64,000 nucleotides of DNA from a virus. Below the pieces are notes generated by a model. That model was given only the letters and a program-made list of their open reading frames with translations, was not told where the DNA came from and did no database searches. Shown piece by piece: positions 5,988-56,926 of the stretch. Where the stretch lies: positions 32,001 to 96,000 of the IMG/VR virus record IMGVR_UViG_3300017973_000001; one strand, given 5' to 3'. The stretch's first letter is position 1, and each line of letters starts with the position of its first letter. The position numbers were made by a program, and so were the translations under genes.

Positions 5988-6025
5988 ATATTGACTATAA
6001 GCACATAATAGGCTATAATGAAGGC

Positions 6026-6122
6026 CGACATACATAGAATAAAGTTCTCTTATTTTCATTGTCTTTGAAACATGCTTCTATGAAAAAATCCTTCTACTTA
6101 TGGTGGGTAGAGGGATTTTTTT
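6026..6122 (+). ncRNA. candidate sRNA
   Basis: TTGACT-17-TATAAT at 5991-6019, no ORF or RBS, terminator 6088-6122. Confidence 0.7.
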
Positions 6123-6126
6123 ATGG

Positions 6127-6215
6127 AAATAAAAATGACTCAAACCGGAGGGAATGAGCCATCTTTTGTAAGTAGTTATCGGTTAAAGCGATAACGCTAA
6201 TGAAAACTTCTACTA
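6127..6215 (-). ncRNA. candidate sRNA with CCCUCC loop
   Basis: minus-strand TTGACC-17-TAAACT (6249-6221); terminator AUGGCUCA/UGAGUCAU plus U-tract. Confidence 0.6.
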
Positions 6216-6264
6216 ACTGTAGTTTAACCTAAAATATATAAGAGGTCAACTGGGGGAAAATAAC

Positions 6265-6714
6265 ATGGCAAAGAAAAATGTTGTATCAAAAGAATTACTG
6301 GAAAAGTTCAACGTATGGAGAAAAGAATCACGAAAATTAGAACGTGAGATAGAAATATTTGTTGAGAATAAAAAACAACAAATAAAAATAGAATTGATGG
6401 AACTATTTGATGACAGAAAAGAAGAAATAATGGATAGAAAAGCTGACATTTGGGATGAGGTTTATGCTGAGCTAGGACTTAATCCGGACCAACCACATAC
6501 AATCGACGCTAGAACTGGTGAAGTAAAACTTGATACGGATGAAGAAGTAGAAATTAATGGTAAAGACTTAGCTCAATTTTTAGGTAAACTTATTGGTGCT
6601 AAGCCAGGTAATATTAAAAAAGCTACTGCTAAAGTTAGAAAGACACCGGAGACTGCCAAAGGACAAGTAGTTGATTTATTCAATGGTGATAAAGGTAACG
6701 ATAACGTACATTAA
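6265..6714 (+). CDS. hypothetical coiled-coil protein
   Basis: GGGGG RBS; phage-like codon usage. Confidence 0.7.
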   Translation: MAKKNVVSKELLEKFNVWRKESRKLEREIEIFVENKKQQIKIELMELFDDRKEEIMDRKADIWDEVYAELGLNPDQPHTIDARTGEVKLDTDEEVEINGKDLAQFLGKLIGAKPGNIKKATAKVRKTPETAKGQVVDLFNGDKGNDNVH

Positions 6715-6726
6715 TAGGAGGGCGCA

Positions 6727-7053
6727 TTGTTGAAAGAGTTTAATTGGTTTAAAAATAAAAGGTTTAATATTCTTCAGTGCGTCAACGGTAGAGTCTACGT
6801 TTACATTAGTCCGTTAATATATGGGTGGCAAGCTCAAATGTACCAACGTGGGAATGTTAGTATGTGTGAGCTTGAAGTAAGGACTTCCAATACTGGCGCT
6901 CCTGGTCTTGAAAAGATGAAAGAGATTGCTGAGCAGTGGTTAACTCAATATGCTGACGGTGATGTAGATAGATATTCAAAAGATAAATACAATATAGCTA
7001 ATCCGAACGGTGTATGGGGGAAAGATCGTGGAAGAAAAGAATATTGGATATAG
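6727..7053 (+). CDS. hypothetical protein
   Basis: AGGAGG RBS before TTG. Confidence 0.65.
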   Translation: MLKEFNWFKNKRFNILQCVNGRVYVYISPLIYGWQAQMYQRGNVSMCELEVRTSNTGAPGLEKMKEIAEQWLTQYADGDVDRYSKDKYNIANPNGVWGKDRGRKEYWI

Positions 7054-7495
7054 TAATCAACATACTAATAAACATATACGTATGCTTAAGATGTTTACAA
7101 TCATCTTAGCAGTATACTTAGCAGTGACAATTATAACTGGCATTATTGCAGTAGGGTTCAGTGTTAAATGGGCTGATTCACTATCAAAGTATGTTTCATT
7201 AGTCGGTAGTGCATTAGTTATAGGATTCATTATTGCTTCAGTCAGAAATTATTTAGCTAGCTCTAAAGAGTCTGAGCGTAGGCAAGAAGAATTACGTAGG
7301 GACTTAGAAAAGTTTGAAGAAGAAAATAAACAAAGGTTCCTTGACTTAGGTTTACCATTTAAAGACCCGGAGGATTTAGATGAATGGTTTGACCATAAAA
7401 AGTCACGTAGGATTGTTGTTTCAGTAAATTCAATTGCAATCCTTGTAAACGTTATAATTTTAATTAAAGATATTTATGAGATATGGTTTAAATAA
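7010..7495 (+). CDS. three-TM membrane protein (start uncertain)
   Basis: three hydrophobic segments around a charged coiled coil. Confidence 0.6.
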   Translation: MYGGKIVEEKNIGYSNQHTNKHIRMLKMFTIILAVYLAVTIITGIIAVGFSVKWADSLSKYVSLVGSALVIGFIIASVRNYLASSKESERRQEELRRDLEKFEEENKQRFLDLGLPFKDPEDLDEWFDHKKSRRIVVSVNSIAILVNVIILIKDIYEIWFK

Positions 7496-7563
7496 GTTGT
7501 TTTTGAACTTTTTAATGTAGGTTTAACCTTGATTTAATGATACTTTTGGTCCATACTGAAATA

Positions 7564-7626
7564 GGTAATTTTTTTCCAATTTTATTATATAGGGAGATAG
7601 GGTTAAATTATCCTATCTCTTTTTAA
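7564..7626 (+). ncRNA. candidate short sRNA
   Basis: TTGATT-17-CATACT at 7529-7557; terminator GGAGATAGG/CCTATCTCT plus T-tract. Confidence 0.5.
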
Positions 7627-7695
7627 TGTAAAAATTTTATTGAAGTCCCCACTGTTTAATTGTATTAATGCAACTAGATTATAGGAGTTAATAAA

Positions 7696-7992
7696 ATGAC
7701 TGAAGAAGAATACTTACAGTACTGGAAAAACCTATGGGCTGAAACGAACAAAGAAAATATAATATTGGAGAAGAAATTACAACTAGCTGAAAGAAAAATT
7801 AAGTATTTAACATATGATAGAGTTAAATATGATCCATATGAAGAACTTAGAAAACTTCAAGGAGAAATGGCTAAACTATTCGCAACACTCGAAGATATAT
7901 TTTTAATAGATTTAATGCAGTATTCACGAAAAGAAATAAAACAAAAAGCTAGGGAAGCTCTTGGGAGGGGTAAATTTTATGGAGAGAATTGA
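7696..7992 (+). CDS. hypothetical protein
   Basis: AGGAG RBS. Confidence 0.65.
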   Translation: MTEEEYLQYWKNLWAETNKENIILEKKLQLAERKIKYLTYDRVKYDPYEELRKLQGEMAKLFATLEDIFLIDLMQYSRKEIKQKAREALGRGKFYGEN

Positions 7993-8218
7993 CATTATAC
8001 GTGAACATATGACGCTAAATTGGACTGAAGAACAACAAGACAAACTTAGTAAAATTTATAGCTTAGTTTATGAGCTAATGTTTGAATTAGATAGTGATAA
8101 AGATAAGATAGATGAATTAAAAGCTATGTCTATGGTTTATGTACAAATTGAACCTATTATCTCAGGGGTTTGTATAAAACAATTTATTGGAGGAATGAAG
8201 GAGAAAGGTAACTATTAA
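7979..8218 (+). CDS. hypothetical protein
   Basis: GGAGG RBS before ATG 7979; terminator follows. Confidence 0.6.
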   Translation: MERIDIIREHMTLNWTEEQQDKLSKIYSLVYELMFELDSDKDKIDELKAMSMVYVQIEPIISGVCIKQFIGGMKEKGNY

Positions 8219-8466
8219 GTTACCTTTTTCTGATTCTAGTAGACATAATGTTTATTATAGGAAGTTCTAAAAATAGCAAAAAGAGGGGACTTTTAGGTAA
8301 AATCCGAACAATTTTTGTTCCAGGTTTAACGGCCAAGTGATTTTTCCGAACGATTTTGAAGATCCCTGGATTCCGGAATTACCTAAAACCCGAACTATGA
8401 AAATATCGGTTTAACCTATTATTCTATGCTATAATTTACATATTACATAGTAAGGATGGTAGCAAC

Positions 8467-8991
8467 ATGCGAGGTATAAATGAAATATTAGACGTACTAG
8501 AGCAAGCAAAAGATGTTTTGGGAGGTTTGGCCGGAGTTGATTTTAACTACTCACCACGATCACTAGAAAAGCTTGAAGTAGCTCTTAACGATATGTTCCC
8601 TTTTGGTAGAAAGACAGATGTTGCAGTATCAATACTGATAGGAGTTTACTTAGGTGAAGTAATCGTTAGGAACATAAAAGAAGCAAGTTGGGGTGAGTTC
8701 AACACAAAAGACCCTTTTGAGACAGAAGTTATAGTAAAAAAAGGTGAGATGACTGGTCATGTAAAACCTTTATTGAGGGCGTATAAGTTCCTTAATAGAG
8801 ATAGAACTGACGCTTTATCAGTATTTTATTATATGAATAAAGCTATGCTAGAAGATAAATTAAAGCACAATACGGGGGCTGAGTGGCAAGAAGATGGTCC
8901 CTATATGTATCGCTCATTAAAAGTCACTAAAGAAGAACATGAAGCTGGCTTAAGCTACGAGCAAATACTTGAAAATAGAAAGAAAAACTAA
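8467..8991 (+). CDS. hypothetical protein (DUF3806/immunity-like pattern)
   Basis: DFNYSPRSLEKLE...IGVYLGEVIVRN...W; own extended -10 promoter at 8427-8435. Confidence 0.5.
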   Translation: MRGINEILDVLEQAKDVLGGLAGVDFNYSPRSLEKLEVALNDMFPFGRKTDVAVSILIGVYLGEVIVRNIKEASWGEFNTKDPFETEVIVKKGEMTGHVKPLLRAYKFLNRDRTDALSVFYYMNKAMLEDKLKHNTGAEWQEDGPYMYRSLKVTKEEHEAGLSYEQILENRKKN

Positions 8992-8999
8992 AGGACGGA

Positions 9000-9233
9000 T
9001 TAATTTCCGTCCTTTTCTATTGATGACATATGTAGATGGCCTAACACTTGTATTAATTGGCCCTCATCTGCAATTACTTCTTCAGCTTCACCATTTGTTG
9101 ACTCATTAATCTTGTCCTGGATCAACTGGGTGGCCGGGCTATCTTCACCAAAGAAAATTGTACATAACTGCAACCAGTTACCTAATGTACTATCCAGTCC
9201 CGTAGAAAGCTTTCTCATATTATTACTCCTCAT
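9000..9233 (-). CDS. hypothetical protein
   Basis: last gene of a coupled three-gene leftward unit. Confidence 0.6.
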   Translation of the reverse strand: MRSNNMRKLSTGLDSTLGNWLQLCTIFFGEDSPATQLIQDKINESTNGEAEEVIADEGQLIQVLGHLHMSSIEKDGN

Positions 9234-9466
9234 CCAAACGATTTTCTAGCGTCTGCTTCATTATCGAATAATCTACAGCCCCAATAAGTTAATTGGTCTG
9301 CGTTGTAATATGTAGCAAACTCCGGATTTTTAAGTGCGTATAGATCACAAGCCTCCTGGAAAGAAGTTGCTTTCTCAGAACCGAAATAATTTGCAAATCC
9401 ATATTCACCAGTTGCTCTAAATCCTTCAGACCATATATGGTAAATTTTTTCATTTACTTTAGTCAT
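9230..9466 (-). CDS. hypothetical protein
   Basis: coupled ORF with RBS. Confidence 0.65.
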   Translation of the reverse strand: MTKVNEKIYHIWSEGFRATGEYGFANYFGSEKATSFQEACDLYALKNPEFATYYNADQLTYWGCRLFDNEADARKSFG

Positions 9467-9470
9467 TGTC

Positions 9471-9980
9471 TTACCCTTCCTCCTTATATTTAACGTCCCC
9501 TAATCCTATTACCCAATCAAACTTCCATCTGAACCAATGAGTTGATTCACAGTCCCACCCGTACATGCTATATTCAGACCAACGAGTAGCCCACTGCCCT
9601 TCTCTAGTTAAACTAACTGCGTCATAATCTTCAGCTACTTTATTAAAGTCAATGGTACCGAATGTTCTAAAATCGTTAAAAAAAGCAAGTGGCCCTTCAG
9701 TTACCGGATACTTTTCCATTAAATGTTTTGCCGACATCTCATCATTTACTGTATAAATACGTGCGTCCTTAGAAGGTACTAGAATACTAGAAGCCCATTT
9801 CCCATCTTTAGGTACCCTAAATTCTTCAGCCAAGCACCACTGTACCCAGTCGCTCCCGTATTCACTTTCATATGTAGAAGTCCATAATCCTCCACCGGCT
9901 TTAATTGCTAAGTGTGGTACCAACGGTCTCAGTTGGCCTTTAACTAAATTACTATTACCTACGTGTAATTGTTTCTCCAT
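9471..9980 (-). CDS. hypothetical Trp-rich phage protein
   Basis: AAGGGG RBS; GGLWTS and YGWDCES motifs. Confidence 0.7.
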   Translation of the reverse strand: MEKQLHVGNSNLVKGQLRPLVPHLAIKAGGGLWTSTYESEYGSDWVQWCLAEEFRVPKDGKWASSILVPSKDARIYTVNDEMSAKHLMEKYPVTEGPLAFFNDFRTFGTIDFNKVAEDYDAVSLTREGQWATRWSEYSMYGWDCESTHWFRWKFDWVIGLGDVKYKEEG

Positions 9981-10222
9981 GTTGTTTATATCCCCTTACA
10001 TACAAAAACCCACCCTACATGAGAGTGGTAAAAATAATAACATTATGTGCATTATACCATACTTATTAACCTATAAATATCTTACATTTGGACCAAAAAT
10101 CGTCACCTATTTTTTAAAAATTTCACGTACCATAAGTTTAAGAAAACTTATATTTAAAAAATAAATTCTTTAAGGTTTGCTTTAATCGACTCTCCCCTAC
10201 TTCGTATAAATTAACCGAGGGA

Positions 10223-11290
10223 GTGATTAAAATGGATCAAAATGAATTACTTCAAAAAATACGTTCAGAATTTGGTGAGCAATCAATGTTCATCTTAGGT
10301 AAAGAAGAAAAATTAATGGATATTAAGGTGCGCCCTTCGGGTTCCCTTCTATTAGATATAGCTTTGGGTGGTGGCTACCCTCAAGGTAGAGTACTTGAAC
10401 TTAATGGTAGAGAAAAGTCCGGTAAGACAACATTACTTAATCTATTAATTGCTGAGTCTCAACTACTTGAACCGGAAAAGACTTGTGCGATTATCGACCT
10501 GGAACACTCTTTTAATCCGGAGTGGGCTAAGAAATTGGGTGTTGATGTAGATAAATTATTCATTACTCAACCGGATACCTACGCTGAGAAAATATTTGAA
10601 ATGATAGAGTTTATGCTGAAAAGTAAAAAGTTCTCTATTATTGGATTAGATTCTATAGCCGGTTTAATCTCAAAAGCTGAGATCGAGGAAGAAAACTATG
10701 AGAATAACTCCCAGGTTGGTGGAACGTCTAAGTTAAATGCTAGAGCAATGAGGAAAATTGTTAATAGTGGTCTTTTAACAGACAGTGGGACAAGCCTGGT
10801 ATTCATCAATCAATTACGTGATAAAATCGGTGGATTTTCTATGTATGGGCCACAGACTACTACGGGTGGTGGCCGAGCTCTGAAACATGCTTATAGCCAG
10901 GTTTTAGAAGTTTCTATTGGAGATTACTTCTCTAAAGGGCAAGGAGATAAAAAGAAAGTATTAGGTCAGCAGATTAAAGTAAAAGTTGCTAAGAATAAGA
11001 TAGCTCCCCCTTTCCGTACTGCTACGATTGATGTTTATTATGAAAATGGTATAGATCGTGTGAGAGAACTTGTACTGGTAGCTAAAGAGATCGGGGTTCT
11101 TCAAGGAACTAGTTGGCTGAAGTTTGTAAATCCTTCTACTGGTGAGATTTACTCAGATGAGGATGGTAAAGAAATTAAATGGAATGGTACAGATAAAACT
11201 TGTGAAGCCCTGGTACAAGATATACAAGAAAATAATGGTATCCTTTACTCACTTCTAGAAGCAACCGTACATGAGACACTTAGGGGGTAA
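10223..11290 (+). CDS. recA: RecA/UvsX recombinase
   Basis: SGSLLLDIALGGGYPQGR, Walker A GREKSGKT, IDLEH, FINQLRDKIG, GGRALK, KNKIAPPFR. Confidence 0.97.
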   Translation: MIKMDQNELLQKIRSEFGEQSMFILGKEEKLMDIKVRPSGSLLLDIALGGGYPQGRVLELNGREKSGKTTLLNLLIAESQLLEPEKTCAIIDLEHSFNPEWAKKLGVDVDKLFITQPDTYAEKIFEMIEFMLKSKKFSIIGLDSIAGLISKAEIEEENYENNSQVGGTSKLNARAMRKIVNSGLLTDSGTSLVFINQLRDKIGGFSMYGPQTTTGGGRALKHAYSQVLEVSIGDYFSKGQGDKKKVLGQQIKVKVAKNKIAPPFRTATIDVYYENGIDRVRELVLVAKEIGVLQGTSWLKFVNPSTGEIYSDEDGKEIKWNGTDKTCEALVQDIQENNGILYSLLEATVHETLRG

Positions 11291-11295
11291 TCAAA

Positions 11296-11538
11296 ATGAC
11301 TATTGGAGTTAGCTTAATGGCAGTCGCTATTTCAATCGTTATATCATCTTTGATTAAATATAGTTTTTTAGCTTACAAGTCACGTATGAGTGACAAAATC
11401 TACAAAGAAGCATTAAATCATGTAATAGTTCATGATAAAGAGCAGATTATTCATTCAATTAGTGTAGGTGTTTTACGCAAATATGACGGGATGGTGCGAA
11501 ATGAAGCTGACCGAGTATACACGAAAGCTATCTCATAA
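11296..11538 (+). CDS. small membrane-anchored protein
   Basis: N-terminal hydrophobic helix; AGGGGG RBS. Confidence 0.55.
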   Translation: MTIGVSLMAVAISIVISSLIKYSFLAYKSRMSDKIYKEALNHVIVHDKEQIIHSISVGVLRKYDGMVRNEADRVYTKAIS

Positions 11539-12496: not shown

Positions 12497-12501
12497 GAGA
12501 C

Positions 12502-12699: not shown

Positions 12700-12737
12700 G
12701 CCCTCACTCCTTTACTATACTAATGACCGAAACGTAA

Positions 12738-12959: not shown

Positions 12960-13149
12960 TATTTACCCTAAGTTCATCTTTAGGTATTCGTATAAGCTCC
13001 CCTTCTTCTTCAAACCAGGGTTCAGTTACTAAATATTCCGTTTTACCTTCACCTACTACAGAATAAGTTTTCCCTTTATATTCAATGACTTTAATATCCA
13101 TCTTCTACTCCTTGTACTCTACTTCTGTTTCCACTTCACGGACCATACG

Positions 13150-13524: not shown

Positions 13525-13627
13525 ATGTATATCAATTCTCCTTTTCTTACTTCAATTACTTAATTATATCTCCCCCACTTCTTATAAATAAAGAGGTAGC
13601 ACCTAACAATTAAGGGGGATTTTTTCC

Positions 13628-14739: not shown

Positions 14740-14781
14740 CCCCATCTGTCTATCCTAAATGTGAAAAGGAGGTTGAAAATT

Positions 14782-15090
14782 ATGAAAGTTTTTAAAGATG
14801 ACATAATCCGTGAGTATTCACAACGTCAAGGCATTAATGGTTCTGAAGCTAAAAGACGTTTCGACGACATAATCGACATTATTACTGAAAATCTTATTGC
14901 CGGTAATGACATAAAAATACCTAACTTCTTTAACTTCTTTGTAAAAGAATTGAAAGCTAAGCCAGGTATTAATCCGATCACAAAGGACCCAATCATTATC
15001 CAGGCAACTAAGACGATCCAGGTCAAAATGACAAAGCCATTAAAGGATCAGTTAAAGGCTAACAATCTACCAAAATACTTATACGAATAA
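14782..15090 (+). CDS. HU/IHF-like DNA-binding protein
   Basis: F.NF.V....K.GINPIT..PI.I.A; AGGAGG RBS. Confidence 0.88.
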   Translation: MKVFKDDIIREYSQRQGINGSEAKRRFDDIIDIITENLIAGNDIKIPNFFNFFVKELKAKPGINPITKDPIIIQATKTIQVKMTKPLKDQLKANNLPKYLYE

Positions 15091-15114: not shown

Positions 15115-15906
15115 TTGTTACCACATCACATTCAACAAAATCTACAACAAAATAAACTATACTACTCAATGGATGAAGTTGAGAACATAATCAGAGCTAA
15201 AACTGACGCTGATTATTTGGGTGATGTAGTCATTGCAAACGAAAGTTTAATATGGCATGCAGTATACAAGTATGTTGGTAGCCCTAAATACATAACCCGA
15301 AATGGTGGCCTTGAAAAAGACGACATTCTTCAGTTAGGTCGCTTAGGTTTTATAAAAGCCGTTTATGCATTTGATATTAACCGTGGTGTCAAATTTAGTA
15401 GTTTCTCAGTGACGGCCATATTTAGAGAAGTACGTTGTTTTTTACGTGATAGCTCTAGTATTATTCGTCCTACACGTACTGCTAATAGCTTAATAAATAG
15501 ATTGCGTTCACTAGAATTGAAGTTAGGCTACCTACCCCATACATCTGAATTATCAGTGTTATTGGATGAGGATGAATCTAAGATTATTAAAGCATTATTA
15601 GTAGGTCAAAATATCAAATATTTGGACGAGCCAGTAAAAAGTAAGATTGAATTTTTGGAGATACCAATATCAATGACTGATAACTTATTGTCAGACATTG
15701 ATGAAGATACCATTCTTGATGAAGTGTATCTAAACAACATCACCGAAAAATTGGCTCAGAAATTGACTGACGTTGAAATGGAAGTCTTTAAAAATAGACT
15801 ATCCGGGTTGAATCAGACTCAAACTGCTAAAAAGCAAAACATATCTCAAATGCGAGTTTCTAGGATCACTAGAAAAATAGCTAAGTTAATTCGAGAAGAA
15901 ATGTAA
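15115..15906 (+). CDS. RNA polymerase sigma factor, SigF/SigG/SigB-like
   Basis: DDILQLGRLGFIKAVYAFD..RGVKFSSF, LRDSSSIIRPTR, region 4 TQTAK..NISQMRVSR. Confidence 0.92.
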   Translation: MLPHHIQQNLQQNKLYYSMDEVENIIRAKTDADYLGDVVIANESLIWHAVYKYVGSPKYITRNGGLEKDDILQLGRLGFIKAVYAFDINRGVKFSSFSVTAIFREVRCFLRDSSSIIRPTRTANSLINRLRSLELKLGYLPHTSELSVLLDEDESKIIKALLVGQNIKYLDEPVKSKIEFLEIPISMTDNLLSDIDEDTILDEVYLNNITEKLAQKLTDVEMEVFKNRLSGLNQTQTAKKQNISQMRVSRITRKIAKLIREEM

Positions 15907-15929
15907 GCTAGGAATATACCTAGCTTTTT

Positions 15930-16069: not shown

Positions 16070-17512
16070 CTAGAAGACCTCGGAAGTATCTCCGAATGAC
16101 ATAGCAACCCTTACAAACTCAGTCACATTGTCAAACTTAGTCCTTATAGACCTTAGTGAATTTGCTAGGAAATCTGCTATTATCCCATTCAAATCATGTG
16201 GGTATAGATTTATCCCCTTTTTAACCAATGTTTTCACAGTTGAATAAGCCTCATCTTTTGTAAAGCTTAAGTCTTTCACTAACCGATTGCAAATATCCCC
16301 CGGATATTCCTTAACTACTTCTACTGCTTCAGCATTAGGTTTATTCTCAAGCCAATTATGGAACGGTATCTTGCCAGTGTATGGAGTCTCCACTTTAGGT
16401 TCCAATTCATCTTTTGCTATTTGGTTGGTTTTTTGATTACCAATTTCATTGTCTATGAACCTAGCAAAACAACTTCCAGGAGACGAAACTGCATTTTTAT
16501 ATTTATACTTCTTGTAGTCAATTAAAGTTTGTTGGACTACTAAGTTAGAAATCTCAGTATGCCTGTACACCTTATATAGCTTATTAAGTGCTTGTAGTAT
16601 CTGCCCTTCTGTAAACCCATTGTTAGACATTACTTGATAAATATTTTGATAACTTAAATTAGTTTGTAACACATTTAATATTTCTTCGTCATCATGCTTT
16701 TTCTTTGGTTCTATTTCTTGATTATATTCATATTCTGTTATAGGAGCCTTATCATGATGATTATTATATAGTGTATTACCATTATAAGTATGGAAAGTAA
16801 GTATGCTTATTAATAGGGATTCAATTCGTTGAACCTGGTCGCTTAACTCATTTGAACCCCCTATTTCTACTGAAGTGTTGGTATCACTAGGTTTTTCGGG
16901 AGGAGCTTCAGATTGAACTTCTTTTTGAACCCCTGGAATTTTGAACCCTTCAGCTTCAGCTAGGTCCTCTATAGTTATTCCGTTTTTACGCATAAGCTCA
17001 CGGATTTTATCTATTGGGCTAACTGCGTTTTTTAAGCGAGTAATTAGACTCTTTTTAGCCCCTTCAATACCGGATTTACGGTGTTTAACGTTAAGCTCCT
17101 TATGGTTGCGTACTTTAACAAGAGGTTTATTACGTAACTCATAATCCCCTAATGGATAGTTCTGAATTATAACGACTGTTTTAGGAGTTCCAGTTGTATG
17201 TTCATTGGATTTTACAAAGTCTACTAACCCGTAGTCATACATTATGTTTAAATATTTACGCATTGTGTTAGAGGCTATACCACGGATTCTAGCCAACCCT
17301 TTAATTCCGTATGTAATTCTTCCAACGTTACTCTCTTTAGTACGAGTAGCCATTGTATGTAGTTTACATAGTTCTAAGTAGACCTTGTCCCCTAATACGC
17401 CAATCCATTGGTCAATGCATGTATATGAATTAAACGGTATATATAATTCATTACGTTTACGTTTTTTCTGTACATCAATATCTATAATATTTTCTGCATG
17501 CGAAAAAGACAT
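16070..17512 (-). CDS. putative replication initiator (N-terminal winged HTH)
   Basis: W...LG...Y..L, GIKGLARIRGIASNTMRKYLNIMYDYGLV; C-terminal YTGKIPFHNWLE typical of Firmicute Rep proteins; AGGAGG RBS; antisense RNA in leader. Confidence 0.65.
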   Translation of the reverse strand: MSFSHAENIIDIDVQKKRKRNELYIPFNSYTCIDQWIGVLGDKVYLELCKLHTMATRTKESNVGRITYGIKGLARIRGIASNTMRKYLNIMYDYGLVDFVKSNEHTTGTPKTVVIIQNYPLGDYELRNKPLVKVRNHKELNVKHRKSGIEGAKKSLITRLKNAVSPIDKIRELMRKNGITIEDLAEAEGFKIPGVQKEVQSEAPPEKPSDTNTSVEIGGSNELSDQVQRIESLLISILTFHTYNGNTLYNNHHDKAPITEYEYNQEIEPKKKHDDEEILNVLQTNLSYQNIYQVMSNNGFTEGQILQALNKLYKVYRHTEISNLVVQQTLIDYKKYKYKNAVSSPGSCFARFIDNEIGNQKTNQIAKDELEPKVETPYTGKIPFHNWLENKPNAEAVEVVKEYPGDICNRLVKDLSFTKDEAYSTVKTLVKKGINLYPHDLNGIIADFLANSLRSIRTKFDNVTEFVRVAMSFGDTSEVF

Positions 17513-17717
17513 TATTATGCGATCCTCCTACAGAGTGGTCCCCAAAGAAAACCTCACACACACAACAACGTCTCTCTTTATCTATCTCTATATCTGTCTA
17601 TTTACCCATAGATTTATTAAAATTTATATTATATTCTATTAAAATATGTAATATTTTTTTAATAAAAAATGTACGGTAAAACCTTGCATACCCCTAATTT
17701 TATATGTATAATGGGGT

Positions 17718-17799
17718 TATCAATATTGTTTAAGCGTTTTTATACGCTTTGTTGTTGTGTGAGTGGTGAACTTTGGACGGTTGAACCACTCTTTTTTTT
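17718..17799 (+). ncRNA. antisense (counter-transcribed) RNA over the rep leader
   Basis: TTGCAT-17-TATAAT at 17684-17712; terminator GAGTGGT/ACCACTC plus T8. Confidence 0.7.
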
Positions 17800-17958
17800 A
17801 TTTGATTAAGCACATAATACCATTGTCTAAAACGTTTGCATAGTCCCTATTTTAAATTTCCATAAAATATAAATATTTAGAACATTGTAAAATATACGGT
17901 AACACCATATAAATAAAGAGCTCCTAATGTGGGAGCTCTTTTTGTTTGTCGAAATGTT

Positions 17959-19029: not shown

Positions 19030-19108
19030 AATTCAGCAATTTCCCCTTTTCGTTCGACTATGTAGGTTAGACCTCACATAGTTCTTATACGAAAAAGAGA
19101 GACGTTAA

Positions 19109-19300: not shown

Positions 19301-19474
19301 AATGTACTGACCCCCTAGAATAAGTTAAGCCCCATTAAGGGGCCCCGGAAGAAAATAAAATCCACACATTAACTTATACTACTTAGTCAGCCTGGAAGTT
19401 AATTTTTATCATAAAATAAATTATTTTACGTTTTCTATGTATAAAATATTATTCGTTTGGCAATACTAATAATA

Positions 19475-19665
19475 CTGAAGAATGGTAACAAGTAAACTTT
19501 CTGAAGTGATCTGAGTTTGCTAATTGTTATTGGGTTATTATTTTGTTACCCTATTCCCTACCTAAAAATTTTTCTATCACTCCGTCCCCTCCTTAGACCT
19601 AAACTGCGTTATTGTGTGCAGAGCACATTAATGCATGGTCGAGAGGAGGAGGCTTTTTTATTTTT
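19475..19665 (+). ncRNA. candidate sigmaF/G-type promoter-driven structured RNA
   Basis: GTATA-15-GGCAATACTA at 19439-19468; two long stems; T-tract from 19654. Confidence 0.6.
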
Positions 19666-19744
19666 ATTCTATTAATATAGTAACCTATAAGTATACAAAA
19701 ACCCCTTAAAGGAACATTCCTCTAAGGGGTTTACTATTTTAATA

Positions 19745-20145: not shown

Positions 20146-21204
20146 TTATGATTTTTTACGTGATTTTCCGTAAGTTTCTCTTGCAGAACGGTTAGCTAAT
20201 TTATGGTACCCACGAACACATGAGAATCTACCTTCATTAACGATTTCAGCTCTAGGGAAGTTTGCTTTTAATATTGGAGTTATGTACTTACGTAGTACGT
20301 CACAACCTCCCCCAGTAAGAATAATAGTGTCGATTTCACTCTTAATATGGATTAACTTTTTGTCGAGTTCACCTACTAAACTTTGAGCATGAATTTGATA
20401 ATTCTCCTCAACAATTTTTCTAATATCAGTATCATTTGAGATAAATCCGGATTGAACGTATTGTGGGATACGTGCAATATTTATGCTTTTACCATAATTA
20501 ATTTCAATGTCGCTTTGAATACCGAGCCACGCTTCATACATACCTTCGTTAAGCGTTGTATTAATTTCCGGGATTGGTGTAAATCCTCTTGAAGCAGTTA
20601 AATTCCATGTACGAGCGCCTAAATCAAATACTATAGTAATTTTTGATAATTCTACACTGTCGGTAACAGAGCCATCATCTTGCAGTAGATAATTAGCAGT
20701 AGTACCAAAAGCCTGGTCCGTTATGAATGTCTTTTTAATATTTATAGCTTTTTGAATAATTGTCCCGTCAGCTAAAGTTACTTTCATTTCATGTGGTTTC
20801 TCAGTAAGTTTTTTTAATAATGCTATACGTTCCGGTACATATTGTTTAACTGGTAAGCCCATTACTAGTACATCTATGTCATCTTGATCCGGACCATTTT
20901 CTGTTAATAGCGTTAGCATTGTTTTAAACAGTGGGTCAAAATCATTTGCAAAATTATGTTTATTTTCTACGCCTTGCCACTTAGCTTTAGGGTTAAGATT
21001 TTGTGCTCCATACCCTACTAGCTTTCTAATATCATCACCGTATTCTACAGTTATATGGCTATGAGGCTCACTATAATCTCCGTCAATACCATTGTCTGGT
21101 TTTGGTACGAATTTGTGTACAAAATTAGGTAAAAATATCTCTAAATCGCCCTTTTTTCCTTTGAAATCTCCAAAGCCATCATCAATCCCAAGCACATTAT
21201 ACAT
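20146..21204 (-). CDS. parM: ParM/StbA-family actin-like segregation ATPase
   Basis: actin motifs GIDDGFGDFK, MGLP, FDLGARTWN, ILTGGG. Confidence 0.9.
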   Translation of the reverse strand: MYNVLGIDDGFGDFKGKKGDLEIFLPNFVHKFVPKPDNGIDGDYSEPHSHITVEYGDDIRKLVGYGAQNLNPKAKWQGVENKHNFANDFDPLFKTMLTLLTENGPDQDDIDVLVMGLPVKQYVPERIALLKKLTEKPHEMKVTLADGTIIQKAINIKKTFITDQAFGTTANYLLQDDGSVTDSVELSKITIVFDLGARTWNLTASRGFTPIPEINTTLNEGMYEAWLGIQSDIEINYGKSINIARIPQYVQSGFISNDTDIRKIVEENYQIHAQSLVGELDKKLIHIKSEIDTIILTGGGCDVLRKYITPILKANFPRAEIVNEGRFSCVRGYHKLANRSARETYGKSRKKS

Positions 21205-22253: not shown

Positions 22254-22473
22254 AGAAGGTTTTTCAATCAATGAAGCTAAGTTTTCAGTGATTGTTCTAA
22301 TGACGTTAATTACGTTTGGTATAACGTTATACCAATTATTCAGTATAGGGCATATTACTAAGTCTTTACTGGACTTATTACAGTACCTATTGATGACTTT
22401 ATTTGGAGTGAATGTTGCAAATGGAGTTACTGGCGCTATATCAGATTTTAATAGCAATAAAGACGATAATTAA
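22237..22473 (+). CDS. holin-like two-TM protein
   Basis: 78 aa, two TMs, directly before endolysin. Confidence 0.65.
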   Translation: MKHILKEGFSINEAKFSVIVLMTLITFGITLYQLFSIGHITKSLLDLLQYLLMTLFGVNVANGVTGAISDFNSNKDDN

Positions 22474-22518
22474 CTTTCTACCTATACTAACGTATAAGAT
22501 TAATAGGAGGGGATTAAT

Positions 22519-31139: not shown

Positions 31140-31743
31140 TTTGTTTCACCTCCATATATCTTCTATATACTGTAGTAAGAGAGAGTTTTAGAATCTTAGA
31201 AATCTCTCTAAAAGACTTTTGCTCAATATCTCTGAGTTTTATAATCTCATCTTTGAAATCACTATAAACTATACCGTACTCTCTTAATAGTTCCCAAACT
31301 GATTGACCTTTCATTCTTGCATGGTAATACAAACGGTCATATAGTTTCTTATCGATATAATTACCATTTTCTTTTACCATTTCTATTAACTCATCTAGGC
31401 TAGCAAATTTATCATATTCAATAATAAAACCTTCTTTAAGTAATGAGTCTGAAATTCCTCCGAAAGTGGATATATAATTATATATATTTCTATTTTCTTT
31501 TCTTAATTTTGTAAGATTTACCTTCTCTCCATGATTATAGAGAAGGTACATAATACATTTATCATAACTTTTTAATCCTCTTTGGTCATCTAAGATCATA
31601 ATTCCTTGCTCATCTAATTCTTTAGATAACCTCACACTATTACTTTTATAGTAAGAGAAAAGAGGGTAGTTTGTTCTTCTTAATACTGATAAAGGAAGAA
31701 CATTATTTCTTGCTAAACTACTTAGAATTTTAGGTATACTCAT
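31132..31743 (-). CDS. protein with C-terminal HTH
   Basis: KSFREISKILKLSLTTVYRRY. Confidence 0.7.
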   Translation of the reverse strand: MSIPKILSSLARNNVLPLSVLRRTNYPLFSYYKSNSVRLSKELDEQGIMILDDQRGLKSYDKCIMYLLYNHGEKVNLTKLRKENRNIYNYISTFGGISDSLLKEGFIIEYDKFASLDELIEMVKENGNYIDKKLYDRLYYHARMKGQSVWELLREYGIVYSDFKDEIIKLRDIEQKSFREISKILKLSLTTVYRRYMEVKQND

Positions 31744-31976
31744 AAAAACACCCCCTTAATATTTATACTAAGGAGGTGGGGGAGGAGTTAAATTCCTACA
31801 TATTTAGCAACTTTAATATTTACAAAAGTTAGGATAGATAAAAGTATAGCTACTCTAAATAGCTCTAATATATTAAGGTGTATAATACTTCTAAAAAGGC
31901 TACCTAATAAGAAACAATAACAAATCAAATCTAGACCTAATAAACAGAATAAAGAAAAACAACCGACCATATCTAT

Positions 31977-32369: not shown

Positions 32370-32636
32370 TTCAACCCTCCAAATAGAAGTATGCATATTT
32401 ATGTTCTGTTAGACCTAAAGGTAAATCTATTACTTTATACTCTATCCCGTTTAAAAACCATACATCACGATCCTCAATATACTGAACTTCCCAGTCCTCA
32501 ACGTTGAATAATCGGGCGAATAATTCTACAATTTCAGCGATATTTAACATACTTCTCCTCCATAGATAACTCCTAAATAATATAGGAGTTACCTATATTT
32601 TATCATTATTGGTTATTATATCCTATCGGTATATTC

Positions 32637-50370: not shown

Positions 50371-50371
50371 T

Positions 50372-50941: not shown

Positions 50942-52752
50942 GGAGAGAGCTGACGATTGACGATACAATCTATGAAATGAAATTAAGGGTTAATAAGCTT
51001 ATTGAGGAAATGGAAAAGTTATCATTTAAAGAACAACCAGTCGAATACATGAGCTATCAAATGAGAATAACTGAATTAATATCTATGATTGATTGGATCG
51101 AGACAAGAGCGAAAATCGGTCTGTAAGGGGAAATGAAGGATGACAAAAGAGGAGCTACTAGAAAAACTAGCTGATTATCCAAAGGATTTTAAAATAATCG
51201 TGCCGAAGAATATACAACAAGAAGGTAGAGACTTGTTTGAATGTACGAAAGTATCAACCGTTGGGAATTTTATTGTATTAGAATCTGATTAATAGGGGTG
51301 GTAAGCTTGGCGAGTGAGGTATTTACGAGTGAATTGTATACCAGTGAAAATGAAAATAGGTTCTTTACGAAAAGTAAGTATGAGTTTATAGGTCATGATT
51401 TTAAATTAGAGGCTTTAGAAGAACTGACGAACGATCCGAAGTTCATAAAAGAACTTGATTATTCTATAGGTAGTATGTATATTAGGAAGTTTCGTTATAA
51501 AGAAGGAGAAAAACATTTTTTCTTTGATTTTTATTTAACTGATTACGACAAGGAAAGATTTACTCTTATACATGCCTACCACAACAAAGAGGATTACTTT
51601 AGTATAGATACAATTAACCACAATTTTTTCTATGACTTAGAGCTGAACGTCAAGATCACGAACAAACGAGTTAAAAAGGGGAGCTAGTGCCGAGGCTCCT
51701 CAGCGTTTGCCCTATACAGGAGGAATGTTTGTGAAAAAGATTACTGTAACGGTTACTGTTTCAAAAGAATTAGAAGGAACTGAAATCGCCAATTACTTAT
51801 TGCTAATAGGTCCATGCAAGAAAGATAAGTAACACCAGGAGGAAACTATGCAACTAGAAAAGATAGGTAAAACCTTTTTATTTAATTCCTATTATGCTTT
51901 ATCTTATAAGGACGCTCACTTTCAAACAAAGCAAGCCTACGTTGTTATCTTAGAGGAAATAATTAGAGAAGAATATTTAACATATGATGAACTAATTGCA
52001 TTTTATTTAGGTATTGAGGATAGTGACATAGATAAGATTAATGGTATTATCGAATGGATCAAAGCTTGGTCAAAGCTTGTAGTAGTTTAATAGATTAAGG
52101 GGAGAATATTATGATACGTATACAGTATATTTGTAGTAATTGTGGCGCTTTTGAACCTTACCTACCATCTAAGAGCTCATCTATAACTTGTATGAAATGT
52201 CACCACAATGAACGTATTCCGGACCCTACTAAATTAGTAAATGAAGGAGAGATAAGTATGAAAAGGTTAGCTTTTGTAATGAGAGGACATTCTGATTATG
52301 ATGACCGTTTATGGTCCTTATTAAAAATTTATAACGACCAGCTAAGGGTATCGTATTCAGAGTTCTATCAAGGTTATGACCACGTAAAATTTATGCCCTT
52401 AATGGTTATGGCCGGAGCAACTATTGTACCGTTATCTGAGGATGATAGTGAAATTGACGCTTATTCTGTAGAAGTTGAAGAAGCTAAGGTGGAAACATTT
52501 CTCAAGCAGTTGGAAAAAGAAATATCGGATTATATAAAGTATAGCTAGGGGATGAGCTTAATGGAGAATAAAGAACTAAAGAAGTACGTAGCTAAGCAGA
52601 AAATACAGATGAGAGGTACTATTGAGTCAGACGTACCCGTATCCCAGGCAGACATAGAGCAAGCCATGAAAGGGATCGTAGAAGAAAAGTTAAAAGCTCA
52701 GTATGATGGCAATTTTAAAGTAGACTCTATAAAGGTCACTCTTGATAAATAA
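50938..52752 (+). other. small hypothetical CDS cluster (50938-51126, 51140-51292, 51298-51687, 51848-52090, 52111-52548, 52552-52752)
   Basis: same strand, RBSs; 52111 has CSNC...CMKC. Confidence 0.65.
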
Positions 52753-52844
52753 TTAACGGTCACACCTCTCTTTTCGTATATGTGAAATAGGGAGGTGTTG
52801 TTGTATGAAATGACATAGAATGTCTCACATGCTATAATTTAAGT

Positions 52845-53021
52845 ACGGTTTAACTGTACGTTGCAAACGAAAATTTCATCATGTATCAATTGAATTTTAC
52901 AACTCAATAGAATGTTGTTTAGTTGGAATGGTTTGAACTTCGACAATTCTGAGCCATTGCACAATACCAACTAAATAACATTCAAAACAAAAAGAGTAGG
53001 CTTGAGACACCTACTCTTTTT
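52845..53021 (+). ncRNA. candidate ~180-nt RNA with long hairpin
   Basis: ATGACA-17-TATAAT at 52810-52838; bidirectional terminator 52989-53021. Confidence 0.6.
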
Positions 53022-53228
53022 GCTATTACGTCATTGTCAGTTTGCACCTGTCGTTCTACCAGTTTACATCTAGAGATTGGAATTTGAAGGTGATTAAAAA
53101 TTCCAAATGTTGCAGAAAAGCCATGTTTGTAATTAGATCGGATTTAAGATTTAAGTTAAAAGCCTTACGAAAAAACGAATAATAGTGTGTGTTGTATTTT
53201 CCACTATACGAATAATTAAATGAGTTCT
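52989..53228 (-). ncRNA. candidate ~240-nt RNA
   Basis: TTGAAT-17-TATAAT (53262-53234); same bidirectional terminator; no RBS-led ORF. Confidence 0.55.
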
Positions 53229-53416
53229 GTAATATTATACTATTCACACAACAATTATTCAAGGTTAGACCTATGTTTCACGTATAATTACCCAAAACAA
53301 CATAGCCGGAACCAGGCACAATACCCCATAAATATACCTACCATTACATAAAGATACGACTGAGCATGTTATACCCGAAAATACCATGAACCATAAGAGA
53401 AACAATATAGTAAACT

Positions 53417-53623
53417 TCATATCTTCTCTACCACGTAGTAGTAAGCAAAATCTAACCCCGTGTTTTTGTCATTATAGACGTGATCCACATAAGCATATGT
53501 ATATTTCTCACCATATAACGTGATTTCTTGCCCTTCAATTAGTTTAGGGAGCTCATGGTATAACGGTTGCACATCTATTATCTTTTCTTCTCCAATTTCA
53601 AAGAAACAAAGTCCTTTTCGCAT
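53417..53623 (-). CDS. hypothetical protein
   Basis: AAGGTGG RBS. Confidence 0.6.
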   Translation of the reverse strand: MRKGLCFFEIGEEKIIDVQPLYHELPKLIEGQEITLYGEKYTYAYVDHVYNDKNTGLDFAYYYVVEKI

Positions 53624-53654
53624 GAAAATACCACCTTTTTAGTAAAATTAAGCG

Positions 53655-53991
53655 TTTTTAGGTGTTTTTGAGCATTTTTTAACGTTTTTTATGATATTTT
53701 CGGTGTTTTTTATCACTTTTGAGTAGTTTTTAAGTGTTTTTATGCTATTTTAAGCGTATTTTAGTACTTTTTGGGCCGTTTTAGGGTGTTTTTAGACGTT
53801 TTTGACACATTTTTAGGTCACTTTAAGCCATTTTGGACCTATTTTGACTCATTTTAATGCTAATTTCAGCTCTTTTCAGCCCATTTCAGCTCTTTTTTAG
53901 CAGTTTTTATTAAAAAATTGGCTATTTTTTGAATTAAATGAACGTTTTTAAGCCTTTTTAAGCAAAAAATACGGGTTTTTAGACCTTTTTT
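53655..53991. other. helically phased T-tract array (intrinsically curved DNA)
   Basis: 25 consecutive T3-T6 tracts, mean period about 10.4 bp. Confidence 0.9.
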
Positions 53992-54020
53992 CAGCTCGTA
54001 TTTGGCCTTATTATTCGTGT

Positions 54021-54296
54021 TTATAACATGCTAACTGTAGCTATAACCTGGGATGGCAAGTTATTTAGACTAGTTAACCCCATAATAAATGTAATACCTA
54101 GCTTGCTATTATGTACTAGTCTCATATTGTCATCATATGTTTTCAAATAGTAGTCTAGCTTTTCCTGGAAGTTTTCACGGGGATTGATAATTAGTTCCTC
54201 GTATTTTGCTACTCCTTCGACTGCGATCATTACATAACTGAAAGATTCATCCTCTATGATGACATTGAATGTTTGTTCAAACTCAGTTTTCTTCAT
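54021..54296 (-). CDS. hypothetical phage protein
   Basis: ELIINPRENFQEKLDYYLKTYDDNM; AAGGGGG RBS. Confidence 0.7.
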   Translation of the reverse strand: MKKTEFEQTFNVIIEDESFSYVMIAVEGVAKYEELIINPRENFQEKLDYYLKTYDDNMRLVHNSKLGITFIMGLTSLNNLPSQVIATVSML

Positions 54297-54317
54297 GTTG
54301 TTCCCCCTTTGTATATG

Positions 54318-54422
54318 AAAAAAGGTCCCTCAGCTTGGAAAGGGACCCCTTGACAGTGAAAATAAATGTAAAAACCAATGTATACTTCTAACGGAGAGCA
54401 AGAAATATATATTCTTTAGTCC
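54318..54422 (-). ncRNA. candidate sRNA or attenuated leader
   Basis: TTGATT-17-TATATT (54456-54428); terminator GGUCCCU/AGGGACC plus U6. Confidence 0.55.
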
Positions 54423-54550
54423 ATCTAAATATATCAATATAGTTTATCTAAATCAATAATCCAATAGTAACATTAAAATTTTATGAGCCTCAGTAGATTA
54501 ATAGAGTTTACACCTATACTAACTGTGATTAAACAATAGGAGGGATAGGT

Positions 54551-55288
54551 ATGAATTACAAAATTGTAAAAGACTCTCTTGATCTACGGGACAAAATCTA
54601 CACAAGTAGCAAATACAAAACAGTAAATGACGTACCGGCTCAGACAAATAACTCAGCTTTAATTGATTGGGTTTTTGACCAGGGGCATGAGGGATCGTGC
54701 ACTGCTAATACTTTTGCTAGTATGCGTATGTATTTGCTTAAAAAGAATGGTCAAACGGCACCAGTATTAAGCCGTGCTTATATCTACTGGCATGAACGTA
54801 AATATGAAGGAACTACTAACCAGGATTCCGGAGCTCTTTCAAGGGATGGAGTAAGAACGTTACTAGAATTTGGAGTATGTACAGATAATGCTATGCCGTA
54901 CAGTGACCGTTCATATGGGGTTGCTCCATCAACACAAGCTGAAGCTGAAGCTTTCAGATATAAAATCAACGCTTACTACCGTGTTCCGGACGTTACTACT
55001 TTGAAAATGGCTCTTGCTGATGGACTAGTAGTATCACTGGGAATGACAGTTTATAAATCGTTTGAGTACGGAACAGTAGGTGAGACCGGTATTTTTGAGA
55101 CACCTGGTTTATTTGAACAGAAATTAGGTGGCCATGAAGTACTGATTGTAGATTATAAAAAAGTTGGAAATTCATACGAGTACAAAGTGTTAAATAGTTG
55201 GGGAGAAAACTGGGGCCAAAGAGGTTATTTTTGGATTACTGAGACTCAGCTAAAGAAAGTAGCTATGGATTTTTGGACTGCTAACTAA
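54551..55288 (+). CDS. papain-like cysteine peptidase (C1 family)
   Basis: DQGHEGSCTAN, GGHEV, NSWGENWGQRGYFW. Confidence 0.92.
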   Translation: MNYKIVKDSLDLRDKIYTSSKYKTVNDVPAQTNNSALIDWVFDQGHEGSCTANTFASMRMYLLKKNGQTAPVLSRAYIYWHERKYEGTTNQDSGALSRDGVRTLLEFGVCTDNAMPYSDRSYGVAPSTQAEAEAFRYKINAYYRVPDVTTLKMALADGLVVSLGMTVYKSFEYGTVGETGIFETPGLFEQKLGGHEVLIVDYKKVGNSYEYKVLNSWGENWGQRGYFWITETQLKKVAMDFWTAN

Positions 55289-55291
55289 ACG

Positions 55292-55720
55292 AAAAAGAGC
55301 CCTCCGGGATTCGGTAGGGTTCTTTCTCTGTTAAATAAACTAATAGGAGTGCTACCCGTCAGTAGCACATCATCAAATATACCAGGTTTTACCAATATCA
55401 TCAATAACAAAACAAAAAGTACCCCATCCGACAAGGGTACTCATTGTTGACAAAAATTAAAATAAAAGGAACTTTTATAATTTACCAGTTATTGGGGATA
55501 AGAGCAAGAGAAAAAGGTACCAATTAAGGTACCAGTTCTCAAAGGAAATTTTAATTTACTAATCATGAAATAATATTAGAAAAAGGTAATATTAGTATAA
55601 TTTACACCGTTTAAAAAATCAAGAGAGGTACTGGACCTCTCCACCTTCTTGTATAGCACACTACTAGATTTTGTTTGGAGAAGGTATTTTTATCATTACC
55701 CTTATTAGCAATGCTTATAC
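55292..55720 (-). ncRNA. tandem array of four candidate sRNA genes
   Basis: four promoter/short RNA/terminator units head to tail; see findings. Confidence 0.7.
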
Positions 55721-55816
55721 TTGTCTACTCTATATGTGTACCGGGAGGTAACTCCCACCACCAGGAGGGAAGGTTATACCTTTCCTCTTTTAATTTTATA
55801 AAGAGGAGGACAAGAT

Positions 55817-56599
55817 ATGTCATTATTTAAAACGATTCAAGTATTTGATACGTCTGTATTAAGCCCTGGAACTGCAATTGATTATGAAACAAAAACAGTT
55901 AAGTTTAATGGCCTTATCACTCGTTCAGATAATTTTATCTTAGAGATTGATTACTATGATCCATCTGCCCTTAATACGGGTAGTCTAATGATTGCACTGG
56001 ATGATGTAGTTAAACAAAAAGTAGCAATTAATATTCTAGAAAATACTACACATACTGTTCCGGATACTACTCCACCGGATAATGTAACTGGTGTAACTGT
56101 ATCTCCTAACTACACTGCCGTTGTTTTAAGATGGACTAATCCAACTGGATTCAGTGACTTTAACGGTGTAAACATCTATCGAGACGGAACATTAGTTGTT
56201 AAAAACTTAGTTAACACAACGTTTACAGATACTTCTCTAAATGAAGGACAAACTTACACGTACATTATTAAATCAACTGACCTAGCTGATAATGAGTCAG
56301 ATGGTATTACGAAAGTTACTACTACACTTGATTCTGTACCTCCTAGTGATGTAGCTAACTTACGTGGTGGTTTAATTACAACCACAAGTATTGAATTATT
56401 ATATGACCTACCGACTGACGCTGATTTTGACCATTTAGTTATCCTACGTAACAATGTTCAGATCGCAAACAGTGTAAGAACTCCGGCTTTCACAGATAAT
56501 GGATTATCTACTGGCCAAGTTTATAACTACACTGTAATTGCCGTTGACCTAAGTGGAAATCAGACTGCCGGGGTTGATATTAGTTTATCTGCTTTATAA
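55817..56599 (+). CDS. protein with two fibronectin type III domains
   Basis: DTTPPDNVT...LRW.NP...YRDG...FTDTSL..G.TYTY.I...D.A.NES, repeated. Confidence 0.85.
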   Translation: MSLFKTIQVFDTSVLSPGTAIDYETKTVKFNGLITRSDNFILEIDYYDPSALNTGSLMIALDDVVKQKVAINILENTTHTVPDTTPPDNVTGVTVSPNYTAVVLRWTNPTGFSDFNGVNIYRDGTLVVKNLVNTTFTDTSLNEGQTYTYIIKSTDLADNESDGITKVTTTLDSVPPSDVANLRGGLITTTSIELLYDLPTDADFDHLVILRNNVQIANSVRTPAFTDNGLSTGQVYNYTVIAVDLSGNQTAGVDISLSAL

Positions 56600-56602
56600 T
56601 GC

Positions 56603-56738
56603 AAAAAAGGCGCACCCTCTATTAAAAGGGAACGCCTTTTTTGTGACTGTCTGCTTTAGATGTAAGGTGTGAACAAGGTGAAACCAACAAGAAGGTATGC
56701 CTTAGAATGGCATTTAAGGGCGCTTCGAACACCCTCAC
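56603..56738 (-). ncRNA. candidate sRNA with three ACCUU motifs
   Basis: phage-type promoter 56771-56745; two 5' hairpins; bidirectional terminator 56603-56642. Confidence 0.55.
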
Positions 56739-56926
56739 TATATTTATACGAATGGCTATAAGTAATGTTAACCTAATTATTTTTTAATTCGTATAAGAAC
56801 TATGTAGAGAATAATCCACTTTTAATGGTTTAACCTACGAAACTGGGAAGGAAATAATTTTTCGAGCTTCGCTAAGGTCAAAATATTTTAAAAAAGTTGG
56901 AAGTATTTAGAGAGGGTTTGGTGTGT

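Follow-up and report, generated by a model that had tools for sequence, protein, structure and literature searches.

The window examined here is a 64,000-nucleotide stretch of viral DNA, bases 32001-96000 of one 109,430-bp contig (IMG/VR record IMGVR_UViG_3300017973_000001). The contig is a complete, plasmid-like 109-kb phage with a partition gene, obtained from a peat metagenome. It is rated complete with direct terminal repeats in IMG/VR, and the terminal repeat is short, the last 40 bases of the contig recurring at position 83. The host is probably a Bacillota bacterium. The TerL protein of the phage (gene 58051-59745) is 51% identical to those of the Brevibacillus phages Jenst and SecTim467 and of Bacillus phage EZ-2018a. 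Identity is 61-71% with the TerL of uncultured phages some 103-113 kb in length and with that of one Bacillota metagenome-assembled genome (MAG); a search of genome contigs gave one Bacillota MAG, at 64%. The subject of this report is a set of 13 short units without an open reading frame (ORF), which an earlier inspection of the letters, here called the sequence-only reading, had proposed as small RNA (sRNA) genes under three promoter classes. All 13 units exist: a terminator-like hairpin is present at each, and no ORF of at least 8 codons with a Shine-Dalgarno match is found in any of the 13. They are listed below, dG being the folding free energy of a hairpin and z the folding of a unit relative to its dinucleotide shuffles.

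5991..6126, plus strand: unit 6026+, promoter-like site TTGACT-17-TATAAT at 5991-6019 (11/12), about 100 nt without an ORF, terminator 6086-6118, z -5.4
6125..6249, minus strand: unit 6215-, weak promoter match TTGACC-17-TAAACT at 6249-6221, strand-orphan terminator 6133-6164 with dG -14.0, z -5.7
7520..7628, plus strand: unit 7564+, composite promoter GGTTTAACC+TTGATT-17-CATACT at 7520-7557, terminator 7592-7621
17675..17800, plus strand: unit 17718+, composite promoter GGTAAAACC+TTGCAT-17-TATAAT at 17675-17712, two hairpins, strand-orphan terminator 17761-17791 with dG -11.6 followed by 8 U, z -3.7
19439..19670, plus strand: unit 19475+, exact sigmaF consensus at 19439-19468, about 185 nt without an ORF, C/U-rich stretches, z -3.9
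52753..53026, plus strand: unit 52845+, two-block promoter 52753-52781 (13/14), then ATGACA-17-TG-TATAAT at 52810-52838 (11/12 + TG), hairpin of about 73 nt at 52910-52982, bidirectional terminator 52991-53019, z -6.5
52982..53272, minus strand: unit 53228-, composite promoter GGTCTAACC+TTGAAT-17-TATAAT at 53271-53234, about 240 nt without an ORF, terminator 52988-53022 with dG -18.6, z -2.05
54315..54456, minus strand: unit 54422-, promoter TTGATT-17-TG-TATATT at 54456-54428, terminator 54321-54350, z -3.0
55288..55735, minus strand: tandem array of four cassettes flanked by two plus-strand genes, terminators 55622-55642, 55508-55540, 55411-55448 and 55291-55328
56598..56771, minus strand: unit 56738-, two-block promoter 56771-56745 (14/14), about 140 nt with two 5' hairpins, bidirectional terminator 56606-56639, z -5.2

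Terminators and promoters were counted in all the intergenic DNA of the contig, which amounts to 15.9 kb (the genome as a whole is 14.5% non-coding), and in 86 dinucleotide shuffles. Terminator-like hairpins number 55, against 10.5 +/- 3.0 in the shuffles, and strong ones (dG <= -12) number 33, against 1.7. A hairpin followed by a U-run is found at all 13 places; 12 of these were flagged by the scans, and the remaining one, at the 3' end of 19475+, is a long interrupted hairpin that is missed by scans for compact hairpins. The intergenic terminators were classed by the strand of the nearest upstream gene. Fourteen are strand-orphan without mirroring a bidirectional terminator of a gene, and half of these have a dG of -12 or below, against an expectation of about 0.9 (taken as half the shuffle count of 1.7). 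The seven strong strand-orphan hairpins are:

6133-6164, minus strand
32562-32596, plus strand
54321-54350, minus strand
55340-55376, minus strand
55411-55448, minus strand
55508-55540, minus strand
60146-60171, minus strand

Four strong orphans are listed for the array region (55340-55540), beside the weaker orphan 55622-55642; the hairpin 55340-55376 is internal to the last array unit and is not its terminator. The orphan terminators are the firmest sign of what would be ORF-less transcription on the 'wrong' strand. Two additional orphans, 32562-32596(+) and 60146-60171(-), stand outside the listed units.

The composite promoter consists of the palindrome GGTNNNACC abutting TTGNNT-17-NANNNT. 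It occurs three times, against 0.04 expected, at 7520, 17675 and 53271(-), where it heads 7564+, 17718+ and 53228-, and each copy is followed by an ORF-less stretch and a terminator. The palindrome in its exact form GGTWWRACCT is present 13 times (1.56 expected), and the observation of the sequence-only reading that it overlaps five of the units is borne out by exact matches at 7520, 17675, 53263, 55384 and 55771. GGTWWRACC sites are nearly all intergenic in this phage, and the motif is not enriched in the relatives. The palindrome abuts the -35 hexamer in three cases, lies inside the promoter spacer at 55384, lies downstream of two-block promoters at 19065 and 56827, and forms hairpin tops at 55771 and 62360; in the relatives, similar palindromes are found in the spacer of some two-block promoters. 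GGTWWRACCT was rejected as a promoter in itself: its spacing to -10 hexamers varies, the copies at 55771 and 62360 merely top hairpins, and enrichment in relatives is absent. We infer that the palindrome, GGTNNNACC / AGGTTTAACCT, is a putative operator for a phage regulator.

The two-block promoter, TTAAY-N16/17-CGTATA, emerged from k-mer enrichment and is often extended to TTCGTATAA. There are 8 copies in the window against 0.33 expected, and 10 in the contig against 0.6; nine of the ten are intergenic, and seven lie 15-58 nt before a co-oriented start codon. When matches are counted over 14 positions, 11 sites reach at least 13 (0.67 expected), including the proximal promoter of polA at 1236-1267. 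The two-block sites are:

84-110, plus strand
1236-1267, plus strand
10182-10208, plus strand
13556-13587, plus strand
22470-22496, plus strand
52753-52781, plus strand
56768-56796, plus strand
19112-19086, minus strand
25771-25744, minus strand
31763, minus strand
56771-56745, minus strand

The pattern is found 17 times in the relative G001 against 0 for the control, 19 times against 0 in G002, and 4 times against 1 in G004. About two thirds of the 30 sites examined in relatives lie 13-60 nt before a Shine-Dalgarno sequence and start codon. This conservation in other genomes is independent support for the promoter, despite the pattern having been defined post hoc. The phage-type promoter of the sequence-only reading stands in part, in that the composite form heads three units, but the real phage promoter is TTAAY-N16/17-CGTATA and differs from the one proposed.

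The two-block promoter mostly heads genes; among the listed units it heads 56738- and lies upstream of 52845+. At 56745-56796 two copies stand back to back with a common palindromic GTTAAC -35 element, the copy at 56768-56796 facing the packaging operon and its mirror copy facing the ORF-less 56738-. Some copies in the relatives (L158, L167, L168 and L184) meet a terminator within 40-130 nt, ahead of any gene. Two of these are:

G001:33390-33416, minus strand: two-block promoter with terminator (L168)
G001:93322-93348: two-block promoter with terminator (L184)

Because these promoter copies meet a terminator before a gene, short ORF-less units or leaders appear to recur in this phage lineage. 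A module of about 40 nt is repeated at 75-111(+) and 19119-19085(-); it consists of a hairpin around GACGTT(T)AATTAACGTC, a T-run and then TTCGTATAA, so that a terminator overlies the promoter that follows it. An identical 18-mer, TTCGTATAAGAACTATGT, is present at 19093(-) and 56788(+).

Promoters of the extracytoplasmic function (ECF) type have the form exemplified by Bacillus subtilis sigmaW, TGAAAC-N16-CGTATA. The two-block promoter resembles them in a -35 element ending in AAC or AAT, a spacer of 16-17 nt and the -10 element CGTATA, and differs in that its -35 element is TTAAY and not TGAAAC. An ECF-like sigma factor of 183 aa is encoded at 31390-31941 of the contig, just left of the window, and would be the obvious candidate reader of the two-block promoter. 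A second sigma factor gene, at 15115-15906(+), codes for a 263-aa SigB/SigF/SigG-like protein that matches TIGR02980 (SigB/F/G) with an E value of 4.5e-31 and spore_sigF with 8.5e-28, both scores being below the curated cut-offs. A gene for an HU/IHF-like protein (14761-15090) adjoins it.

The sigmaF consensus is GYATA-N15-GGNNANAHTR. It has one exact match in the window, at 19439-19468, against 0.19 expected, and this match heads 19475+; relaxed sigmaF and sigmaG patterns occur at chance level. The sigmaF-type class that the sequence-only reading had put forward is therefore reduced to this single site, and a sigmaF/G promoter class was rejected. The 263-aa phage sigma could read the site without any link to sporulation. 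The further mapping of the promoter classes onto carrier state, sporulation and lytic growth is conjecture, and a stage-specific regulatory layer may be entertained as a hypothesis. Sigma factors of the sigF/sigG-like kind are common in phages of spore-formers (PMC9429907). The present phage is similar in that its 263-aa sigma best matches SigB/F/G and spore_sigF and that one promoter matches the sigmaF consensus exactly; it differs in that the scores fall short of the curated cut-offs and that there is only one such promoter. A similarity of 60 nt (19399-19458) to the relatives G003 and G005 was rejected as evidence for an sRNA, being weak and AT-rich and preceding a protein gene there.

The strand-switch and accessory regions of this phage hold real ORF-less cassettes running from a promoter-like site to a terminator, and there is about an even chance that some 8 of the 13 are expressed as separate short non-coding RNAs, 60-240 nt long. 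The likely transcribed units are 6026+, 7564+, 17718+, 19475+, 52845+, 53228-, 56738- and, in the 55.3-55.7 kb array, the last unit at least; the others on the list are more plausibly terminators of genes or 5' leaders. About eight units have a candidate promoter of their own with class-specific support or a near-consensus match. Best supported are 52845+, with two promoters and strong structure, 56738-, 17718+, 53228- and 19475+. Support is intermediate for 6026+ and 7564+, whose terminators also suit upstream genes, for 55369- in the array, and for 6215-, which combines an orphan terminator with a weak promoter. All the units fold better than their shuffles (z -2.05 to -6.5), much of which is due to the terminator stem; additional structure is clear in 52845+ (the hairpin of about 73 nt), 56738- (the two 5' hairpins), 55369- and 17718+. 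Several ORF-less transcription units under more than one promoter class are plausible.

In the array, the -35 hexamer of cassettes 2-4 begins within or right after the preceding U-tract. The last promoter, 55404-55376 (unit 55369-), carries GGTAAAACC inside its spacer. The other three units have promoters of 8-9/12 or none, yet possess orphan terminators. The four have no common sequence: mean column identity is 56% and there is no conserved block. Listeria LhrC1-4 is a tandem sRNA array whose copies are sequence paralogues. The phage array resembles it in that small head-to-tail units, about 60-110 nt long and each possessing a terminator and a putative promoter, share one intergenic gap, and differs in that its four units are alike in architecture only.

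Several observations weigh against the transcription of these cassettes as discrete RNAs, and some of them favour ordinary punctuation instead. The hairpins would then be terminators, often bidirectional, of neighbouring genes, the promoters would be chance hexamers in AT-rich DNA or belong to nearby genes, and few or no discrete sRNAs would be made; this is possible, although doubtful. Generic sigma-70-like matches are at chance level, and in intergenic DNA they are fewer than in the shuffles; scans built into the search tool likewise show no promoter enrichment. Matches of at least 9/12 number 58 against 65; with a score defined as the matches out of 12 plus one for an extended TG, those of at least 10 number 9 against 13.9, and those of at least 11 in the whole contig number 9 against 8.6. 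Good sigmaA matches, the first of the three classes proposed earlier, are confined to 5991-6019 and 52810-52838, and five units (6215-, 54422- and three of the array) have weak promoters only. Promoter-terminator pairs, to which the sequence-only reading had pointed, do exceed the shuffles, with 17 terminators against 2.05 having a match 10-250 nt upstream. However, since promoter matches are not enriched and the 17 of 55 terminators (31%) equal the roughly 33% predicted from match density, the pair excess comes from the terminators alone, and a generic hexamer pair upstream of a terminator is not evidence.

Most of the intergenic terminators (33 of the 55) lie behind a co-oriented gene, and the terminators at 6086, 7592, 52991 and 56607, which belong to 6026+, 7564+, 52845+ and 56738-, could just end one. 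Thus 6086-6118 lies 99 nt beyond the stop codon of gene 5454-5987, and 7592-7621 lies 97 nt beyond that of gene 7010-7495, with gene 7696, which by eye has a possible promoter of its own, coming next. On the other hand, punctuation does not readily account for seven strong strand-orphan terminators where about 0.9 are expected, for four tandem minus-strand terminators between plus-strand genes, for the fact that gene 52552-52752 already has its own terminator (52762-52798) ahead of 52845+, or for a composite promoter that is found three times and is always followed by an ORF-less stretch and a terminator. The nominal significance of the composite and two-block patterns is inflated, since both were defined after the data had been seen.

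The remaining contrary observations concern homology, targets and source. A search of the whole window with Rfam 15 (4227 families, the presence of the CsfG model being unchecked) gave no match at gathering score and none at E <= 1. RNAduplex pairing of each unit with all translation-initiation regions of the phage was no better than that of shuffled versions. The non-coding regions do not align with the relatives found, none of which is close enough for conservation or covariation, and the 48.7-56.6 kb region is absent even from phages with 61-71% TerL identity. The sequencing runs that contain this DNA amount to one peat DNA metagenome, with no RNA run listed.

ARAGORN found no tRNA. The hairpins were considered as possible CRISPR-repeat mimics (anti-CRISPR RNA); they have no Rfam CRISPR-DR match. 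CA/UG-rich stretches occur at 17548-17568, 17750-17765 and about 53190-53200. The 17718+ RNA contains GTTGTTGTGTGAG, which copies in inverted form a stretch of the 5' untranslated region of gene 16070-17512, a 480-aa gene for which no relatives were found, and the 53228- RNA carries the complementary ACAACACACAC. The complementarity may be due to chance, the sequence being low in complexity.

It is quite unlikely that 6026+, 7564+ and 54422-, together with the hairpins 19327-19345 and 55763-55789, are 5' leaders with controlled read-through, by antitermination or RNA switching, and that the short RNAs are by-products. The order promoter, terminator, gene does recur, and in G001 (L184) the same order stands under the conserved phage promoter. 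At genes 54296, 19300 and 55817 the distance from the end of a terminator to the start codon is 25-28 nt, which leaves no room for a promoter, and 54422- itself is more likely a 5' leader or attenuator, because 25 nt separate the end of its terminator from the start codon of gene 54296-54021. No co-oriented gene, however, lies downstream of 17718+, 19475+, 52845+, 53228-, 56738- or the array, and polA has a two-block promoter of its own after the 949-976 terminator. No antiterminator fold or protein was identified, the folds having had no dedicated examination. Two additional ORF-less candidates stand outside the list of 13. The first is at 864-984(+), with a promoter at 864-892 (10/12 + TG), terminator 949-976 and z -6.2; the second, at 19374-19327(-), has a relaxed two-block promoter at 19374(-) and the hairpin 19345-19327 right before gene 19300.

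The stretch 52753-56926 is a low-coding island, about 52% non-coding against 14.5% genome-wide, and is lacking in the TerL relatives. Among its genes are one for a papain-like C1 peptidase (54551-55288) and an FN3-like one (55817-56599). Relatives of the peptidase do not exceed 70% amino acid identity within the protein collection, or 41% among the loci fetched from viruses and metagenomes. The high non-coding content of the island and its absence from relatives would fit the very unlikely explanation that the cassettes are decayed, the promoters and terminators being leftovers of lost moron genes in a region of fast turnover. In G001, moreover, a 79-aa gene stands under the divergent promoter that lies upstream of the terminase genes. 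Against decay, 56738- contains no remnant similar to that gene, so that it was rejected as a decayed homologue of the relatives' small gene; structure is strong beyond the terminators, as in the hairpin of about 73 nt in 52845+; and the array has a regular head-to-tail layout.

Within the island, in a gap flanked by two minus-strand genes and some 3 kb upstream of those for the terminase, about 35 T-tracts are phased at 10-11 bp over some 360 bp (53640-54000). DNA with such phasing is predicted to be intrinsically bent, and the tracts could mark an origin, a packaging site or a site for a nucleoid protein. Elsewhere the phage encodes the partition protein (20146-21204, minus strand), thymidylate synthase, DNA polymerase, thymidine kinase and dTMP kinase. 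Phage records searched by megablast and blastn gave no match to the window, and the viral contigs found through TerL have packaging and structural genes alone in common with this phage.

In Bacillus prophages, type I toxin-antitoxin systems such as bsrG/SR4 and txpA/RatA consist of convergent RNAs with a common terminator. The RNAs of 52845+ and 53228- would likewise converge on one bidirectional terminator, but no peptide ORF is present and the overlap is confined to the terminator. A type I system was rejected for this pair, neither RNA having a Shine-Dalgarno-led hydrophobic peptide ORF. Among the sRNAs of phages and prophages are lambda OOP, P22 sar, P1/P7 c4, P4 CI RNA and those of enterohaemorrhagic Escherichia coli prophages, and plasmid prophages such as P1 and P4 use short RNAs for immunity. 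The present candidates resemble these in being short, phage-borne, ORF-less units with a putative promoter of their own and an intrinsic terminator. They differ in being known from sequence alone, without Rfam homology or an identified target, and in an unusually large number of candidates and an unusually large tandem array, of four units. A review covers the small regulatory RNAs of phages and prophages (PMC12197685), and a transcript map of KZ phage is available (PMC8244752). As phage-encoded sRNAs are already known (PMC12197685), the units described here are a new, putative set of members and no new kind.

The sequence establishes that the elements are present and how far they exceed chance, that the units lack ORFs, and that the phage has the sigma factor genes; transcription, the assignment of sigma factors to promoters and any regulatory role are inferred. 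Three classes of promoter would be involved: a sigmaA-like promoter with the operator-like palindrome GGTNNNACC abutting its -35 element, the ECF-type two-block promoter, and the one sigmaF-consensus site. The ECF-like and SigB/F/G-like phage sigmas may offer a mechanism for class-specific expression, and because the phage encodes these two sigma factors, different RNAs would be made at different points of the phage programme. Base-pairing or attenuation would be the likeliest roles of the RNAs. A dedicated non-coding RNA programme is unlikely; it would combine a GGTNNNACC module reserved for ORF-less units, a four-gene sRNA array, a mirror-promoter sRNA at the packaging operon and a sigmaF-type sRNA read by the phage sigma, with the phage sigmas and a palindrome-binding regulator timing the RNA layer across plasmid-state and lytic phases.

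If the units are transcribed, they would be among the denser sets of phage-encoded small RNAs, and they would tie sRNA expression to phage-encoded sigma factors in a way that ORF-based annotation misses. Independently of the sRNA question, the lineage-conserved TTAAY-N16/17-CGTATA promoter and the composite operator-promoter, two patterns that give concrete candidate start sites, would provide a first transcription map for an uncultured group of phages of about 100 kb.

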